From a virus (Duplodnaviria > Caudoviricetes), in IMG/VR virus record IMGVR_UViG_3300013121_000022, positions 108,505 to 172,504 of that record: DNA of 64,000 nucleotides; one strand, 5' to 3'. Each line of letters starts with the position of its first letter. Within the stretch, counting starts at the first letter, position 1. Shown here in pieces: positions 16,688-55,133 of this stretch. A program made the position numbers and the translations under genes. The notes under the pieces were generated by a model. The model was not told the DNA's origin. It saw only the letters and a list, made by a program, of their open reading frames with translations, and ran no database searches.

Positions 16688-17070
16688 GATCGGCGCAGAT
16701 CAAGTTGTCGAGCTCGAAAGAGTTAGGAACTTCCCGACGATACAGGAGCAATCCTGAAAACCCTCCACATGAAAACAGCAAGTGTGGACAGTTCGACTGA
16801 ACTGATGTCAACGGCAACAGAGAACATTCCGCTCGAAAGAGTAACGGGTGAAAAGGACGGTGATACCCGTCCGGCATGTCAAGGTAACTTGCTTGCATAG
16901 GCGACAGGACAGGGGATCGCAAGGTGGCGCAAGATAGGCTACGGTTTATCTTGTAGAACCGCAGTATAAACGGTACGACAGAATAACACTCAGTCGCACT
17001 AGGATATACCATCAACCCGATGAGAAAGATGACAACCTAAACAGAATCGGGGGTATGATCGGCGCAGATT
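16688..17070 (+). ncRNA. rnpB: RNase P RNA (divergent, phage-encoded)
   Basis: P2 GTTGTC/GACAAC, P3 GAAA hairpin, P4 AGGAACTTCCCGA with ACAGAATCGGGGGTA, P5 CGAT/ATCG-CAAG, GCAACAGAGAA and GGGTGAAAAG joiners. Confidence 0.88.
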
Positions 17071-17979: not shown

Positions 17980-18051
17980 GCCGATGTAGCTCAATGGTAG
18001 AGCAACTTCCTTGTAAGAAGAAGGTTAAGGGTTCAAGTCCCTTCATTGGCT
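17980..18051 (+). tRNA. tRNA-Thr(TGT)
   Basis: loop CTTGTAA. Confidence 0.9.
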
Positions 18052-18118
18052 CAGTGTCCCATCAACAATTTATAGCAGGAGTCTTATCCTACTATGGACA
18101 GGGAATATGGGACAATCT

Positions 18119-18191
18119 GCCGGATTAGCTCAGTTGGTAGAGTATCTTTTTCGTAAAAAGAGGGTCACGAGTTCGATTCTCGTATCCGGCT
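18119..18191 (+). tRNA. tRNA-Thr(CGT)
   Basis: loop TTCGTAA. Confidence 0.92.
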
Positions 18192-18227
18192 CAGGTTCGT
18201 TTCATTGTGTCTCATTTAGGAATGAGA

Positions 18228-18255
18228 CAAAGCCTCTTGACAAAGAGGCTTTTTT
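18228..18255 (+). terminator. intrinsic terminator overlapping the next -35 box
   Basis: AAAGCCTCTT-GACA-AAGAGGCTTTTTT containing TTGACA. Confidence 0.7.
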
Positions 18256-18271
18256 GATCTATATTTGTCTC

Positions 18272-18478
18272 ATGACATCTAAAACCGATAAGCCAAAGAA
18301 AATTGAAGCAGGACGCTATTTGTATCGTGGTGTAATTATTCGTCGCAATCCATCAGTCGCGTCGGGTTGGTATGGATCGTGGTTATTCAACGACAGCGGA
18401 GCAGATAGTTTGAATGATGCCTGCCAACAAATCGATTCTCGAATTGAGGCCAGAAAAAATGAAACTATCAATCGCTAA
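18272..18478 (+). CDS. hypothetical protein (leaderless)
   Basis: TTGACA-N17-TATATT-N6-ATG. Confidence 0.65.
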   Translation: MTSKTDKPKKIEAGRYLYRGVIIRRNPSVASGWYGSWLFNDSGADSLNDACQQIDSRIEARKNETINR

Positions 18479-18806
18479 TCTCCGAAAAAGCGAAATTCCT
18501 TCCGAAGTAAAGAATCGTGTTTTAGATTTGATCAAAACCCATCGTACTCGTGCTTTGTCTTTGGAATATCGAGACAATCTTTATCTTGACGAAGGATCGG
18601 ACTATACGTTTTATTTGAACGGTGAACAAAAATCTGTTTCCATGATGTCCGCCGAAGGGTTTCATGCTGGTGGTCAGCCGATTGAATATAAGGTTGGCGC
18701 AACCCTGCCTCTGCCATTTGGTGTGTGGGTCGTGGAAAGGAAATTGTTTTTGGGTAAATATCTTATTCGCATTATTCACAACAACGGACAAAAGGAGCTG
18801 AAATGA
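18459..18806 (+). CDS. hypothetical protein
   Basis: GAGG RBS, coupled ORF. Confidence 0.6.
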   Translation: MKLSIANLRKSEIPSEVKNRVLDLIKTHRTRALSLEYRDNLYLDEGSDYTFYLNGEQKSVSMMSAEGFHAGGQPIEYKVGATLPLPFGVWVVERKLFLGKYLIRIIHNNGQKELK

Positions 18807-19003
18807 AGTTCTATTATGTGGCCTATACATGGGTAGATAACACATCAAACGGAGTCGGTAATGCATACATTACTTCTACAGGGCTAGACAACAAAACCGC
18901 AATTGAACTCGTCAAACAAAACATTATCGATTTGCTGGCTAAAGAAAGAGATAATCCTAACGTTGTGATTACAAACTTGATTGAATTAAGGAGTCTCGAC
19001 TAA
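18803..19003 (+). CDS. hypothetical protein
   Basis: AAGGAG RBS, ATGA overlap. Confidence 0.6.
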   Translation: MKFYYVAYTWVDNTSNGVGNAYITSTGLDNKTAIELVKQNIIDLLAKERDNPNVVITNLIELRSLD

Positions 19004-19004
19004 T

Positions 19005-19241
19005 ATGAAACGCCAATACTATCTCACTTACGTTAAGCTCCCGCCCGAAGACGAATTTGATGAATGGACGCAAATCGCCAAAACAAAAACTTTATCACAA
19101 GCGTCTCAGGCAGCTGTCGATGCAGGTGCTGAGGCAGTGATTTATTTCGTTACTGATACGCTGGCAGGTCGTCATTGGTATCGCAATTCTGTTTGCATCA
19201 ATGACTTGGTTCACTACAACAAAATTGTTTTTGCGGCATAA
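19005..19241 (+). CDS. hypothetical protein
   Basis: AAGGAG RBS. Confidence 0.6.
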   Translation: MKRQYYLTYVKLPPEDEFDEWTQIAKTKTLSQASQAAVDAGAEAVIYFVTDTLAGRHWYRNSVCINDLVHYNKIVFAA

Positions 19242-19253
19242 AGGATTCATAAC

Positions 19254-20147
19254 ATGGGATACGCACACATCGAAAATCTTTACAAGCCACATGTAAAAGA
19301 ACTTCTCTTTATGTTTCGGGAAGTCTATGCACTCGAAAAGATACATGGATGCTCCGCCGAAATTAAGTTTACCGCCGAGATTGGAACTGGCAAAGTTGAT
19401 GTTAGTTTTGACGGTGGGCTATTGTCGCCAGAACAATTCTCAAACATTATCGACAAGTCTATTGTAGAAAAGTTCGTGGAACTGAACAAGCAATACAACA
19501 ACGAAAGCATGTCTGTGTTTGGTGAGCTCTACGGTGGATCGATCAACCATATGAGCAAGGTGTATGGAGAGGAAAAACGCTTTGTTGTTTTTGATGTCAA
19601 GGTTGGCGATGTTTTCTTGTCTGTGCCACAGGCCGAAGACACAGCGAATCGACTTGGACTGGAATTCGTATCTTACAAGCGCATTCCGGTAACGATTGAA
19701 GCCATTGATGCTGAACGGGACGCCGAATCGGTTCAGGCTATCCGCGTCGGAATGGGTTCTGGCAAATATCGCGAAGGTGTGGTTTTGCGTCCGTTGTTTG
19801 AAGCACGACTGAATAACGGCGAGCGAATTGTAGCCAAACACAAGCGTCCAGAACATTCTGAAACAAAGACTCCGCGAACTCTGAATGAGGATGAACTGAA
19901 AGTCCTGTCCGATGCCAATGAAGTTGCAGAGGAATGGGTTACGGAAACCAGACTCCAGCATGTCTTGGACAAGATTACCGGAACACGAGATATGAAGTTG
20001 ATGGGAACGGTAATAAAGGCCATGACTGAGGATGTGTACCGAGAGGCGCATGGCGAAATCGTGGAATCCAAAGCTATTCAAGGCGCAATCAGCAAGAAAA
20101 CGGTTGCGCTTTACAAGAACTACCTTGAAACCGACAGCGTTCAATAA
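19254..20147 (+). CDS. ATP-dependent RNA ligase (Rnl2-like)
   Basis: motif I EKIHG, GELYG, FDV, EGVVLR, terminal K motif. Confidence 0.85.
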   Translation: MGYAHIENLYKPHVKELLFMFREVYALEKIHGCSAEIKFTAEIGTGKVDVSFDGGLLSPEQFSNIIDKSIVEKFVELNKQYNNESMSVFGELYGGSINHMSKVYGEEKRFVVFDVKVGDVFLSVPQAEDTANRLGLEFVSYKRIPVTIEAIDAERDAESVQAIRVGMGSGKYREGVVLRPLFEARLNNGERIVAKHKRPEHSETKTPRTLNEDELKVLSDANEVAEEWVTETRLQHVLDKITGTRDMKLMGTVIKAMTEDVYREAHGEIVESKAIQGAISKKTVALYKNYLETDSVQ

Positions 20148-20384
20148 CAAAATTGAAGCACTGCTAGTCGATTTACATCGATGGGGAGTGCTTCAATGTA
20201 TTATCCGACAAGATCAAATGTTTTGCACTCCACCTGTAGCCGGACGTCCATCAATTGTTGATATGTTTGAAGTTGAATGGAGCGTTCATTCAGTCAAAGA
20301 CGTTCCAGAGATCGTCTTGTACGTGACGGACACTACAGCCTACACGCGATTGCACAAATGGAATCAGAAAGAAAGCTTACTGAC

Positions 20385-21110
20385 ATGGACAATCTAAAAG
20401 AGATTGGGCAAACATGGATTGTTGAATTTCCAAGAACAAAACATCTTCCATTTCGCCCTAACGCCACTCGTGATGACCTAATTGCTACCCAAGTTCAGGC
20501 AAGCATTATTTTTGATCCGGCAGTTGTCGTATCAACAACTGAAAAAGTAGACGGGGCACAATTGGGAGTTGGAATTGTTGATGGTAATCTTTGTATCCGC
20601 AACCGAAATCACGTGCTCAATAAAGGTTATCTCAGTCGCGGGGCGGCAGGCCGACAATTTGCGCCAACATGGACGTATTTTTACAAGCGAATTGAAGCAC
20701 TAAAGGCAATGGAAAAGTTCGCAGGTGAGCCTTTGGTAATTTACGGAGAGTGGTTGTATGCGGTTCATTCAATTGTTTATGACACTTTAACTGTTCCGTT
20801 TTTGAGTTATGATATTTATTTGCCGGAACAAAAGATATTTATTAAAGGTGCTCTGGCTAGATCGCTACTAGAAAACTTTGGATGGTCAGTTGTTGAACAA
20901 CTTGAAAACAAGGGATCGTATGAAGAATTGTCGAAGTTGTGTCACCAAAAATCGGCCTATGGATCGACTAAGCGAGAGGGTGTTTATCTGTCGGTCTGCG
21001 CCGATAAAAAATCAGTCACACATCGATTCAAAATGGTACGTTCAGATTTCATTACTGGTGAACACTGGTCTAAGCGATCTATTATCAAGCAACCTATGGT
21101 GAGGTTTTAA
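20385..21110 (+). CDS. RNA ligase family nucleotidyltransferase
   Basis: PRTKHLP, TEKVDG, YGEW, REGV, RFKMVR. Confidence 0.85.
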   Translation: MDNLKEIGQTWIVEFPRTKHLPFRPNATRDDLIATQVQASIIFDPAVVVSTTEKVDGAQLGVGIVDGNLCIRNRNHVLNKGYLSRGAAGRQFAPTWTYFYKRIEALKAMEKFAGEPLVIYGEWLYAVHSIVYDTLTVPFLSYDIYLPEQKIFIKGALARSLLENFGWSVVEQLENKGSYEELSKLCHQKSAYGSTKREGVYLSVCADKKSVTHRFKMVRSDFITGEHWSKRSIIKQPMVRF

Positions 21111-21988: not shown

Positions 21989-22180
21989 ATGTCAAAACTC
22001 AATTTGGGCGACACGGTGTATGTAAAGGGTTTTCGGAATCAAGGGACAACGACCATTGCTCGGTTTATGATCAATAAAAAGGGCGGAGTTGTATTGAACA
22101 ATCCGATTAACGGTTTGTGGTGCTGGAATGTGAAGGATTTGGTTAAGATCAAATTACCAAAGGTGTTTAATGGAAATTAG
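21989..22180 (+). CDS. hypothetical protein
   Basis: GAAAGGA RBS. Confidence 0.55.
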   Translation: MSKLNLGDTVYVKGFRNQGTTTIARFMINKKGGVVLNNPINGLWCWNVKDLVKIKLPKVFNGN

Positions 22181-22355
22181 CGTGGGATTGAAAGTCACAT
22201 GGAATGACAACGGATTAACCCGATGGGATTATTTTGAACTTGTCATTCGCAACGGGCAGGAATTAGTTTTGTCGGGTTTTGGAAAAACCGTTCACATCAA
22301 GGTTGAGGACTTGAAATATATCGAACCATTTGGAAAGTTACCAGAAAACGGTTGA
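22170..22355 (+). CDS. hypothetical protein
   Basis: AAGGTG RBS. Confidence 0.5.
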   Translation: MEISVGLKVTWNDNGLTRWDYFELVIRNGQELVLSGFGKTVHIKVEDLKYIEPFGKLPENG

Positions 22356-22490
22356 TGCCATTTGTATACTCTGTGATGTAGAAATCCAGCATACCGCGTT
22401 CGCGGAGGCATAAGAATGGGTGCAACCTGTGGTCTTGTCTGAGTAGGCAAAGGTCATGAACTTTGTTTGAATGGCATCATCCGTTTTCTG
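22342..22490 (+). ncRNA. candidate structured RNA, about 150 nt
   Basis: about 21-bp closing stem CAGAAAACGG-T-TGATGCCATTT/GAATGGCATCA-T-CCGTTTTCTG. Confidence 0.55.
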
Positions 22491-22569
22491 ATAAATTCGG
22501 TGGTACGATAACGCAAGTAATCTTGAAATTGATCCTTGACAGGATAGCAAAAGCGACTATAATTTTTTT

Positions 22570-23570
22570 CTGTTGGCCTGAACTTTACAAAAATTACTGA
22601 GGGCGCTAATGGAGTTCAACTCTCCATCAGTAACATATCCAAATTGGAGTGGGGTAGTGCATACCCAAATCAAGGGAGGAAGCAAGCGAAAGCAAGCTGA
22701 AACCTGAGATTGAAACTCTAAGGCGGAGGGAACATCTAGTTCCCTTAGATAAAACCCGTAAGGGTAATAAAGGCGGATACCAATGGTCTGCCGGATGCAA
22801 ATCTCAACTAGACGAACTATCTTCGCTTGTGTTGGTGTAGGTGGTCGGCAAGAAATTGCAGGCTACTGAACAGCTAAGCCCACTGAAAAGGTGGTGAGTC
22901 CGAAAGACAAAACAATAAGATAGAGGGTAACAAGTTCGTTCGCAAGACGGGCGCTTACAAGACAATCGGCATCACTCCTAGCGGAACTTGCCAGAAAGTT
23001 AAGCGGTTACTGACAGCAAATCAGTGGCGGCAAAATGTGTGGTGTGGTAAAGGGATGCGTAAAAGTGTCTACAACCCGACAGGATACATCACGCACAATT
23101 GGAAAAACTCTGCCTGAAGCTCAGGCTTGGCCTCTTAAGCAAATGCAATCGCAAAAATAAAGTCCTGTAGGTGTACGAGATTTACAGATACCCCTTCATT
23201 ACCGTAACCAATCGGTGAATCAAGGCCACGAGCTTTGATATGTGCAACGAGTGAAGGATGTTCGGCGGCTTGCAACCGTTGGGCATCAGGCGCGGCGAGT
23301 GCATAGAAGATTTCGTAAACCTGAGTGGGTTGGGCTAAACCCACAAAAAGAAACTAAGCGACATCGTAAGCACAACGATACGCAAGGATAGCGGGGTAAA
23401 GTGTAGGATGATTGGGGTAACTCGATCTTGGAACAGAGCGGACACTGTGACGAACAGAACTGCTTGACTCTACACTAAAAAACGGAATGTGGCCTGAACC
23501 GTTTCTTGAAACGACTACCCTCTGGACTATATAGTCGAATGGACATATAATTCAGAGAGTGGTCATTTTT
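22570..23570 (+). ncRNA. large ornate ncRNA, about 1 kb (GOLLD-like candidate)
   Basis: consensus TTGACA/TATAAT promoter upstream, no + strand ORF, many GNRA hairpins, terminal hairpin plus T run. Confidence 0.65.
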
Positions 23571-23597
23571 GTTTAACCGAAAGATGGAAAATTTTAC

Positions 23598-24194
23598 ATG
23601 AAGATGAATGCTGTTATGGTCGGAGATGTACACGGCAAGTGGGATCAATTCAAGTCGATTGCTGAAAAGGCAACGATGCCTGTGTTTCAGGTCGGTGACT
23701 TTGGATTTGGACTACGGAATCGTAAGCCCAACATCAAAGGCGATTGGCGTTTCATTCGCGGCAATCATGACGATCCAAGTTTAGCTAAAAAGGACAGTCA
23801 TTATGCTGGCGACTTTGGCGTTTGGAACGGAGTGTTCTTTGTTTCGGGCGCAGCTTCAATTGATGTTGGTCAGCGTACTACTGGTGTTGACTGGTGGCCG
23901 GATGAACAATTGAATTACACGCAAATGCAAGAGGCATACAATCTGTATGTAAGATTTAAGCCAAAAATTGTTATCACTCATGATTGTCCAGATCATTTCA
24001 AGTCGCATTTTATGACCTATGTCATCAAGCGATCCTCGACCGGAGTTTTATTGAATGCACTATATGAATTTCATGAGCCAGAGTTGTGGGTTTTTGGTCA
24101 TCACCACAAAAGTCAGCAAACTCGATTCGGAAAAACAATGTTTGTTGGCCTTAGAGAACTTGAAACCCAAGAAATTGAATGGACGATTCCATAA
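23598..24194 (+). CDS. calcineurin-like metallophosphoesterase
   Basis: GDVHG, VGDFG, GNHD, THDCP, GHHH. Confidence 0.9.
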   Translation: MKMNAVMVGDVHGKWDQFKSIAEKATMPVFQVGDFGFGLRNRKPNIKGDWRFIRGNHDDPSLAKKDSHYAGDFGVWNGVFFVSGAASIDVGQRTTGVDWWPDEQLNYTQMQEAYNLYVRFKPKIVITHDCPDHFKSHFMTYVIKRSSTGVLLNALYEFHEPELWVFGHHHKSQQTRFGKTMFVGLRELETQEIEWTIP

Positions 24195-24214
24195 TATAGT
24201 CAAAAGAGAAGATC

Positions 24215-24856
24215 ATGACAACCTGTAAATGCTGTGGATCAATTATTACCAATGGAAACTCTCGTACATGGGATGAAATTCCGAGTTGCTTCAACTGGAG
24301 TCGTCGGGCGGTTGAAGTTGCTTTAGTTCAAAACTCCCCTATTGTGTTTTATGGCAATGTATGGGCATCGATCATAGCAGAGGCAACCAAGATTCTTGAT
24401 AAGGAACTGGCGGTTTATCATGTCAAACCTTGTCCTTGCGGCAACTTCCGAAGCGCAGTTGCTTCGTGTACATGTTCGGTTAGACAAATTCAGTCGTGGG
24501 AGCGTAAACGCGATTTTCAAAGAGCATTGAGTGTGTATCATTTATGGATTGAAATTCATGATGCTGATGGACGACTAGATATTCATCAAAACAGGACAGA
24601 AAAGATCGCTGATATTGTCAGTCGATCTAAAAGAGCACGAGATAAATTATCTAAGATCGATTCAAATCTCATTGAGGATTCGGGACAATCTCTATTACAG
24701 GCATGGGACAGACAATCTCATATGTCGTATCGTTTACCAGCAATCAAGCATGTTGCAACCAGTATTGCATCTCTCTCGGCTTTATACTCAAGCGTCAACC
24801 ATCTTTCGGCGGTACATATCGCTGAATCCATCCAATATCAGCGCAAAAATTGGTAA
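24215..24856 (+). CDS. degenerate ComM/YifB (Mg-chelatase-like) C-terminal domain protein
   Basis: PCPCG..CTCS..QI, VATSIASL, HIAESIQY; no Walker A seen. Confidence 0.6.
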   Translation: MTTCKCCGSIITNGNSRTWDEIPSCFNWSRRAVEVALVQNSPIVFYGNVWASIIAEATKILDKELAVYHVKPCPCGNFRSAVASCTCSVRQIQSWERKRDFQRALSVYHLWIEIHDADGRLDIHQNRTEKIADIVSRSKRARDKLSKIDSNLIEDSGQSLLQAWDRQSHMSYRLPAIKHVATSIASLSALYSSVNHLSAVHIAESIQYQRKNW

Positions 24857-26280: not shown

Positions 26281-26353
26281 GGGCAATTAGCGTAGTTGGG
26301 AACGCATCTCAATGGCATTGAGAAGATCATGGGTTCGAGTCCCATATTGTCCA
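26281..26353 (+). tRNA. tRNA-Ala(GGC)
   Basis: G3-U70, loop ATGGCAT. Confidence 0.92.
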
Positions 26354-26373
26354 CAGGAAAGAAATAATAACAC

Positions 26374-26751: not shown

Positions 26752-27410
26752 TGATGCAACGTAAAGATAGTGATTGCATCATTATTAATAATATCTGTGT
26801 CCTATCTGTCTGGTCTGGTTTGGTCAGAGAAAAACATCGGAACACTAGGCGAAGATTTTCGAGCAGATTTCATAAATTGGTTTATGCGCGATGGGCTTGT
26901 CAGTCCAATGACAATCGCGTTGAAGGGTGCGCCTCTGTAACCGCACTCCCATAACATGAGGCAAAGCTTGTAAGAGACAAGTGGAAGTAGGGTTTTCAAG
27001 TCTGCTATCTAATAACCACACTCCGTCACTAGGGAAGCGTGAGCCGAAACGATGTGGCGCAGAGGAAAAACTTGCAGACATGCACATTTCAAATTCTATA
27101 TTCTGTTGTTCAGGGCGAGTGATTGACTGATCATCAACATTCGTTATAATCATCGCGTAAAAACTGTTGCCATAACAGTAGCGCACTAGACTATACACTT
27201 TCGCTGGTCTAGGTTGAACAATACCAATGACATAGAGCATCACAAGTGGGAGATACGAGCGAATGCTTTGAAGCAGTAATGCTTCTTAACCCACGTGAGT
27301 CGTCCCGAATCTTACAGCTAGTGGTCGGTGGCGTGAAGGAAAAATCCTTTCACAGAAATGTGTCGCTTAATAATTTAGTTGGTATGTCTTATCGGCTTTG
27401 CAACCGATTG
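26752..27410 (+). ncRNA. large structured ncRNA, about 650 nt (ROOL-size candidate)
   Basis: no credible ORF, dense hairpins, bounded by two tRNA-Ala genes. Confidence 0.55.
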
Positions 27411-54666: not shown

Positions 54667-54820
54667 TGCTATACATGGTGGTTGCAGGAAAACGAAGAAT
54701 CGAAATTTCAACTAACTGATCAGGGATCGCTATGTTGTACACCTATACCTGTGATGATAGATTTGATTCTTGACAAGCAAGAGTAATTGTGTATAATCAG
54801 CCTTAGTTCTTTAACAATTT

Positions 54821-55133
54821 GGGAGCGACAGGATTCGACGGATACAGATAGCTGACGGATCGATCACAAAATAACTGACAATACTTCTAAAGAAGTTGCA
54901 CAGTTTGAAGCAATGTTCGCACAGTTCGCCTCACAGGGAGCTGTCATCGCCGCCTAAAGCGGTTCGCAGTGACGTTTGTGTATTCGTATAAATACACTGG
55001 TGGCCTTTCATCCCCGCACGTTCGGCAACTCGTAAAGTTGTCCCTTACTTCGCTAGGTTAAACGAAGAATGATCGTAACATCTGAAAGCACATGATCGGT
55101 AGACGGACGTGGGTTCAATTCCCACCGCTTCCA
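54821..55133 (+). ncRNA. ssrA: tmRNA
   Basis: GGGAGCGACAGGATTCGAC start, G3-U acceptor, T arm GGGTTCAATTCCC, tag ORF 54877-54957 after ATAACT ending IAA-stop; own promoter. Confidence 0.95.

Follow-up and report, generated by a model that had tools for sequence, protein, structure and literature searches.

A candidate gene for a 1-kb structured non-coding RNA in the translation-RNA-maintenance island of a phage

Large protein-free structured RNAs are rare, and RNA-only assemblies of GOLLD, ROOL and OLE have been shown only recently, their functions being still unknown. The bacterial Y RNA YrlA, an RNA of 100-200 nt, carries a tRNA-like module and is encoded together with a Ro60/RtcB RNA-repair operon. 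GOLLD is a phage-borne, highly structured RNA of more than 800 nt that lies beside tRNA genes and whose function is unknown; some of its members carry a tRNA within a linker, and the RNA forms a protein-free homo-oligomeric nanocage (PMC12286853). ROOL, which is large and ornate, occurs in phages and prophages, often near tRNA islands, assembles free of protein and is likewise of unknown function (PMC12286853).

Here, we describe a locus that invites comparison with these systems, in the 172,504-bp IMG/VR phage record IMGVR_UViG_3300013121_000022. The window, that is, the whole 64,000-nt stretch of DNA analysed, comprises bases 108505-172504 of that record, and positions below are those of the window unless stated otherwise. 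Our results make it likely that the locus is a genuine structured non-coding RNA gene and, on balance, we favor reading it as a stand-alone gene whose product is a large non-coding RNA (about 1.0 kb) of an uncatalogued family, so far known only from this phage. The locus resembles GOLLD in the length of its predicted transcript, about 1,005 nt, and in its tRNA neighbors within a tRNA-rich phage window, and the tRNA-like minihelix that we predict near its 5' end parallels the tRNA held in the linker of some GOLLD RNAs. However, the GOLLD covariance model fails to match the locus at E<=10, and sequence similarity is not detectable. ROOL differs in length, at about 0.6 kb against about 1.0 kb here, and its model has no match in the region. 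The likeness to YrlA is that of a non-coding RNA with a tRNA-like module among RNA repair genes. A Ro60/Y RNA system was nevertheless dropped, since the phage has no Ro60/TROVE gene and Rfam gave no Y RNA match, and Y RNAs are far shorter. In an unrelated metagenomic phage contig (L002, 2952-6432), a metallophosphoesterase homologue lies 1.5 kb upstream of a Ro60/TROVE gene, and the uncalled gaps between those genes could hold Y RNAs.

The genomic setting is one of translation and RNA maintenance. The window carries 45-46 tRNA genes and a tmRNA (ARAGORN, Rfam), the tRNAs closest to the 1-kb locus being at 18119-18192 and 26281-26354. A divergent, full-length RNase P RNA of bacterial class A (model positions 1-367) was found at 16692-17070 on the plus strand by the permissive Rfam scan (58.9 bits, E=2.4e-17); the default scan missed it because 58.9 bits is below the 100-bit gathering score. 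To our knowledge, phage-borne rnpB genes are unusual. Among the products of the rest of the genome are a terminase, a portal protein and a CCA-adding enzyme, the last being a tRNA nucleotidyltransferase of 565 aa (PHROG 2244, E=2e-54) at G000:C1:22292-23989, outside the window (L006:14293-15987). Around the locus itself, two ligases directly upstream (19254-21110) and, on the other side, a metallophosphoesterase and a 213-aa ORFan (23598-24856), all on the plus strand, make up an RNA repair-like cluster. Taken together, the ligases, the phosphoesterase, the tRNA array, the tmRNA, the RNase P RNA and the CCA-adding enzyme place the RNA within a translation-RNA-maintenance island. Other ORF-poor spacers are numerous in the tRNA island of this phage. 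A second ORF-poor stretch, of about 650 nt (26752-27410, plus strand), lies between two tRNA-Ala genes; it had no Rfam match at E<=1 except for the edge of a flanking tRNA, and it may be another uncatalogued RNA.

The locus has the outer parts of a gene of its own (Table 1). The TTGACA/TATAAT promoter reported in a preliminary description, made by eye, agrees with the sigma-70 consensus at every one of its 12 positions, and it predicts a transcription start for the 1-kb RNA at about 22570. Perfect TTGACA-N16-18-TATAAT sites occur seven times in the window, all on the plus strand, against 0.06 expected, and three of the six others stand directly 5' of a tRNA-Ala (26281), a tRNA-Ile (30325) and the tmRNA (54821). 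This type of promoter is therefore real here and serves stable RNA genes. The final hairpin with a T run was also rightly recognized: it folds at -25.5 kcal/mol (z -4.78), and none of 200 shuffles did as well. The end had been placed at 23570, where the terminator is indeed present, although the U run extends slightly past that point, to 23574. A simple scan of the plus strand of 22570-23575 matched no internal promoter or terminator; it also failed to call the terminal hairpin, because bulges interrupt the stem. Further upstream, a structured element of about 130 nt (22350-22490, plus strand) folds at -45.7 kcal/mol (z -2.4), with GAUGCCAUU/AAUGGCAUC as its closing strands and a U run behind it. 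It overlaps the 3' end of a 61-aa ORF, and transcription of the preceding operon probably terminates there. With its own promoter, its own terminator and this probable terminator of the operon before it, the locus therefore looks like a separate transcription unit.

Elsewhere in the window, the sequence TTCTTTAACAATTT (54807-54820, plus strand) lies between the perfect promoter at 54770-54797 and the 5' end of the tmRNA at 54821, and is the only such site in the window; it is an almost exact copy of boxA, the enterobacterial rRNA antitermination element. A boxA antitermination leader was considered for the 1-kb RNA as well, and was dropped because CTTTACAA occurs six times in the window against 2.7 expected and because the leader of the RNA is not within three mismatches of the boxA-like sequence before the tmRNA.

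Table 1. Features of the 1-kb RNA locus and of its surroundings, in positions of the window
Feature	Position	Strand	Description
Sigma-70 consensus promoter	22536-22563	+	-35 TTGACA 22536-22541, 16-nt spacer, -10 TATAAT 22558-22563; 12/12 matches
Perfect promoters	22536, 26242, 30286, 44822, 49298, 51469, 54770	+	TTGACA-N16-18-TATAAT
Predicted primary transcript	22570-23575	+	about 1,005 nt, non-coding; A 32%, G 26%
5' leader segment ACAAAAAUUAC	22587-22597	+	11 nt, 91% complementary to 23562-23572 (GUCAUUUUUGU); paired in MFE
tRNA-like minihelix	22594-22633	+	7-bp stem UUACUGA/UCAGUAA, 9-nt bulge, 5-bp stem, T-loop-like loop UUCAACU; MFE
Hairpins GGGUA-GUGCA-UACCC and AGCAAGC-GAAA-GCAAGCU	22652-22698	+	joined by purine-rich strand AAAUCAAGGGAGGA; pair probabilities >=0.95
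Four-hairpin run	22727-22803	+	AGGGAAC/GUUCCCU; ACCC-GUAA-GGGU; GGCGGA/UCUGCC (9-nt loop); GAU-GCAA-AUC; pair probabilities 0.80-0.90
12-bp hairpin with GAAA cap (22840-22867), then CCACU-GAAAA-GGUGG and GUC-CGAAA-GAC	22840-22908	+	pair probabilities 0.83-0.92
Central domain	22968-23094	+	nested hairpin 22968-22992; 10-bp hairpin 23003-23031; pair probabilities 0.87-0.96
9-bp long-range helix of central domain	23037-23045/23086-23094	+	encloses GAUGC-GUAAAA-GUGUC
GCCUGA-AGC-UCAGGC hairpin	23112-23126	+	terminator-like site when read on minus strand
3' domain, part 1	23199-23293	+	hairpins 23199-23218 and 23220-23238, 12-bp hairpin 23257-23287; pair probabilities 0.81-0.99
3' domain, part 2	23325-23464	+	GUGGGUU/AACCCAC, 23358-23383, GAUUGGG-GUAA-CUCGAUC, nested hairpin 23437-23464; pair probabilities 0.88-0.99
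Intrinsic-terminator-like element	23513-23574	+	21-bp interrupted stem 23513-23564, then AUUUUUGUUU
Promoter-like site TGGACT-N17-TATAAT	23523-23551	+	10/12 matches; within terminator stem
T4 Rnl2-like RNA ligase	19254-20147	+	upstream of RNA
Second RNA ligase, PF09414	20277-21110	+	upstream of RNA
Calcineurin-type metallophosphoesterase	23598-24194	+	immediately downstream of RNA

Beyond its boundaries, the locus stands out by its predicted fold, a thermodynamic prediction made on one sequence. Specifically, shuffles of the full-length plus strand average -277.4 kcal/mol in minimum free energy (MFE), and the strand itself has -322.6 (z -4.77), whereas the minus strand reaches -269.7 kcal/mol (z -2.03) and seven coding segments of 1,006 nt from the same phage, used as controls, range from z +0.49 to -2.64. 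A strand-specific fold energy beyond that of shuffles and coding controls is what is generically looked for in a structured non-coding RNA. Further, 5 of the 29 hairpins in the plus-strand MFE structure are capped by GNRA loops, where shuffles have 0.58 on average and never more than 3, and the minus strand has none, which amounts to an approximately ninefold enrichment on one strand only. Helices with a pair probability of at least 0.8 number 24. The hairpins picked out by eye in the preliminary description reappear in this fold, namely TACTGA..TCAGTA (22595-22631), GGGTA-GTGCA-TACCC (22652-22666), ACCC-GTAA-GGGT (22754-22765), GGCGGA..TCTGCC (22772-22792), GCCTGA-AGC-TCAGGC (23112-23126) and GTGGGTT..AACCCAC (23325-23344), most of them with pair probabilities of at least 0.8.

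The search for relatives of the locus returned chance similarity only. A blastn search against 50,697 phage records (2.3 Gb) gave nothing at E<=1e-5 or at E<=10, and DNA searches of four huge-phage genomes (chosen for sharing the ligase or another protein of the window) and of 39 terminase-related IMG/VR contigs gave only chance matches of 16-23 nt; the one related IMG/VR fragment held no homologue either. Pattern scans, four of them on IMG/VR, one on metagenome contigs and one on genome contigs, used either exact seeds or patterns with loops and junctions fixed and stems free. They produced no homologue: in the only three matches, the supposed stems were non-complementary, and nhmmer found no similarity. 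No paralogue of the RNA occurs in the phage's own genome.

The flanking genes were equally sparing with relatives. The ORFs of 61 aa (upstream) and 213 aa (downstream) have none (ORFans), and homologues of the metallophosphoesterase are at most 48% identical, with none of the five contexts examined being syntenic. The family of the second RNA ligase has 55 members, the closest of which, at 51% identity, belongs to a related phage (L097, JGI 3300045394; L098, JGI 3300045377). This phage, known from these fragments and from a third (L010, IMG/VR 3300045391), is the only detectable relative, with a 58% identical terminase and 73% nucleotide identity over the tRNA-Thr region, and it lacks the Rnl2-like ligase at the syntenic position. 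Sampling around our phage is poor: that terminase is also the single close relative of its large terminase, found on a 12-kb IMG/VR fragment; all others are at 30% identity or less, and the nearest phage isolates give matches at about 25%. The related phage is collinear with window positions 18030-21107 and diverges right after the ligase into different small genes, and its fragment holds neither the RNA locus nor any similar sequence at the syntenic place. As far as is visible from these sequences, the RNA would thus not seem to be a conserved feature of the related lineage.

These results bear on the explanation that competes best with a dedicated RNA gene, namely that the locus is a transcribed long spacer, a leader or a decayed gene remnant between two operons, with a structure that is incidental or that merely stabilizes the transcript. 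Its conservation cannot be shown, the related phage has other small genes in its place, the tRNA island of this phage is rich in further ORF-poor spacers, and a promoter-like site, which probably serves the downstream phosphoesterase gene (23598-24194), sits inside the terminator. Even so, we regard this explanation as unlikely, given that it does not account for a perfect promoter of the stable-RNA type paired with its own terminator, for a fold at z -4.8 where coding controls reach -2.6 or weaker, for GNRA loops confined to one strand, or for a G+C content above that of the flanks with no trace of protein similarity.

A second alternative concerns the fate of the transcript, which could be a precursor from which RNase P, RNase Z or RNase E releases a number of smaller RNAs, perhaps with a tRNA-like piece among them. 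In its favor, the phage encodes its own RNase P RNA, the predicted helices are mostly local hairpins, and the tRNA-like minihelix lies about 25 nt from the predicted start of the RNA. Taken alone, however, this minihelix is modest (z -2.2; 6 of 200 shuffles fold as well), and neither ARAGORN nor Rfam calls a tRNA there. The transcript also has no internal promoter or terminator, and no internal repeats or modules were found in 22570-23575; no tRNA or other small-RNA family was detected inside it even at E<=10; and some predicted helices are long-range, such as that at 23037-23094. We therefore hold processing into several products to be improbable. The related idea of a decayed tRNA array was dropped because the region has no tRNA (ARAGORN; Rfam at E<=10) and the genome no paralogue.

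On the reading of one large RNA, the predicted parts suggest 5', central and 3' domains. The leader at 22587-22597 and the tail at 23562-23572 may pair into a helix that brings the two ends of the RNA together, an interaction noticed post hoc and lying only weakly beyond chance. In the run of four hairpins at 22727-22803, two of the loops are of the GNRA type. The hairpin at 23257-23287, which alone folds at -20.2 kcal/mol (z -2.9), presents a 7-nt loop, CUUGCAA, that contains the palindrome UUGCAA, again a post hoc observation. Two further proposals were dropped: the 10-nt direct repeat TGGCCTGAAC as an insertion scar, processing signal or bracket, since by our estimate about 0.5 such repeats per kb are expected by chance, and a sponge of Shine-Dalgarno-like (anti-Shine-Dalgarno-binding) sites, since the 15 sites compare with 12.9 +/- 1.8 in shuffles.

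The locus could also be a very divergent member of something already catalogued, whether GOLLD, ROOL, OLE, a group I or group II intron, or an rRNA fragment, and its size, phage origin and tRNA-island location do resemble those of GOLLD and ROOL. The preliminary description had left the choice between an enlarged GOLLD-type RNA and a new class, naming covariance searches for GOLLD, ROOL, OLE and the group I and II introns as one way to check it; in those searches, no family matched in the region. The default Rfam 15 scan gave no family at gathering score there, and a scan of 22350-23650 with relaxed filters and the 4,227 Rfam 15 models, including OLE, gave best E-values of 2.8 to 4.7, for a Tetrahymena snoRNA, a CRISPR repeat and a preQ1 aptamer, all of them unrelated and far below their gathering scores. 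The positive control for this permissive mode was the divergent RNase P RNA of the same window, which was recovered at E=2.4e-17, and the sensitivity of the scan is therefore adequate in this genome.

Model by model, the search for GOLLD and its conserved 3' domain (RF02032 in the Rfam copy used) scored 11 candidates across the phage genome, of which none came in at E<=10, and membership in that family is thereby refuted. ROOL (RF03087) gave only a chance match of 8.2 bits and 24 nt (E=4.5) elsewhere in the genome, and the group I intron (RF00028) only a 6.9-bit match outside the window, with none in the region. The group II intron (RF00029) and the D1-D4 families had no match in the all-family scans, RF01998 (group-II-D1D4-1 in the same copy) having zero matches. 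A divergent known family is thus very improbable, and of the two earlier options, the GOLLD-type RNA falls away, while a new class fits all of the single-sequence evidence.

Hardly any weight is left for a protein-coding origin, through an alternative genetic code or small genes on the minus strand. The earlier observation of some 1,000 nt without a plus-strand ORF holds: the three plus frames of 22560-23600 contain 22, 16 and 19 stops, with TAA, TAG and TGA each present in every frame, the longest plus-strand ORF is of 49 aa, and the index of 3-base periodicity, at 1.6, is below the 3.1-12.5 of the neighboring genes. In fact, 22026-23597 is the longest stretch without an ORF of at least 75 aa in the 172.5-kb genome. 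None of the nine small ORFs inside the region was called by the gene caller of the source annotation, and the six longest had no Pfam match at E<=1. An alternative genetic code was rejected on account of the stops in each frame and of the absence of a suppressor tRNA among the 46 tRNAs of the window. The minus strand does have fewer stops, and on it a 69-codon ORF (23344-23135) ends just before a terminator-like hairpin; the low stop count is explained by the purine-rich composition of the plus strand (58%), and the ORF was rejected as a gene because its GTG start follows a pyrimidine run and lacks a ribosome-binding site, and because no promoter was found on the minus strand.

Finally, origins sometimes account for large non-coding gaps in phages, yet a role at the level of DNA, as a replication origin or packaging site for instance, is scarcely credible for a locus that has no iterons, repeats or AT-rich block, a G+C content above that of its flanks, no turn in cumulative GC skew and a strand-specific folding advantage, in a genome whose direct terminal repeats lie at its ends, away from the locus.

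Returning to the stand-alone RNA gene, a course of events can be sketched. The host sigma-70 RNA polymerase would start at about 22570 from the perfect consensus promoter and stop at the long hairpin and U run (23513-23574), and the transcript is predicted, from this single sequence, to fold into more than 20 helices, many with GNRA-type caps. By its context and by analogy with GOLLD and ROOL, the RNA would be made in quantity during infection and would act in trans as a stable structural RNA of their kind, that is, a compact, self-folding and possibly self-associating particle that might act within the translation/RNA-maintenance module of the phage. The tRNA-like minihelix could conceivably serve as a processing signal for RNase P, whose cut would then define the mature 5' end, a suggestion with weak support.

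Function is argued here from gene neighborhood and analogy only. As a tentative proposal, this RNA of about 1 kb may found a new class of giant phage RNAs, of which it would so far be the sole representative, and form a compact and possibly multimeric particle. Its partners would be the neighboring RNA ligases and phosphoesterase and the phage's own RNase P, tRNAs and tmRNA; it might, for example, serve as a scaffold or decoy by which the translation RNAs of the phage are guarded or serviced against host RNA-targeting defenses. More speculative still is the narrower view that the RNA is a scaffold that assembles itself and takes part in RNA maintenance or counter-defense, and we would not expect it to hold.

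The orphan status of the locus makes it, at present, a well-supported single-sequence candidate only; it would also be a good target for cryo-EM. The combination of the strongest promoter type of the genome with neighbors devoted to RNA repair and tRNA maintenance gives it a concrete functional context, that of RNA repair and tRNA defense. If our reading is true, this would be a further giant phage RNA of unrelated sequence, and such RNAs would have evolved more than once in phages.
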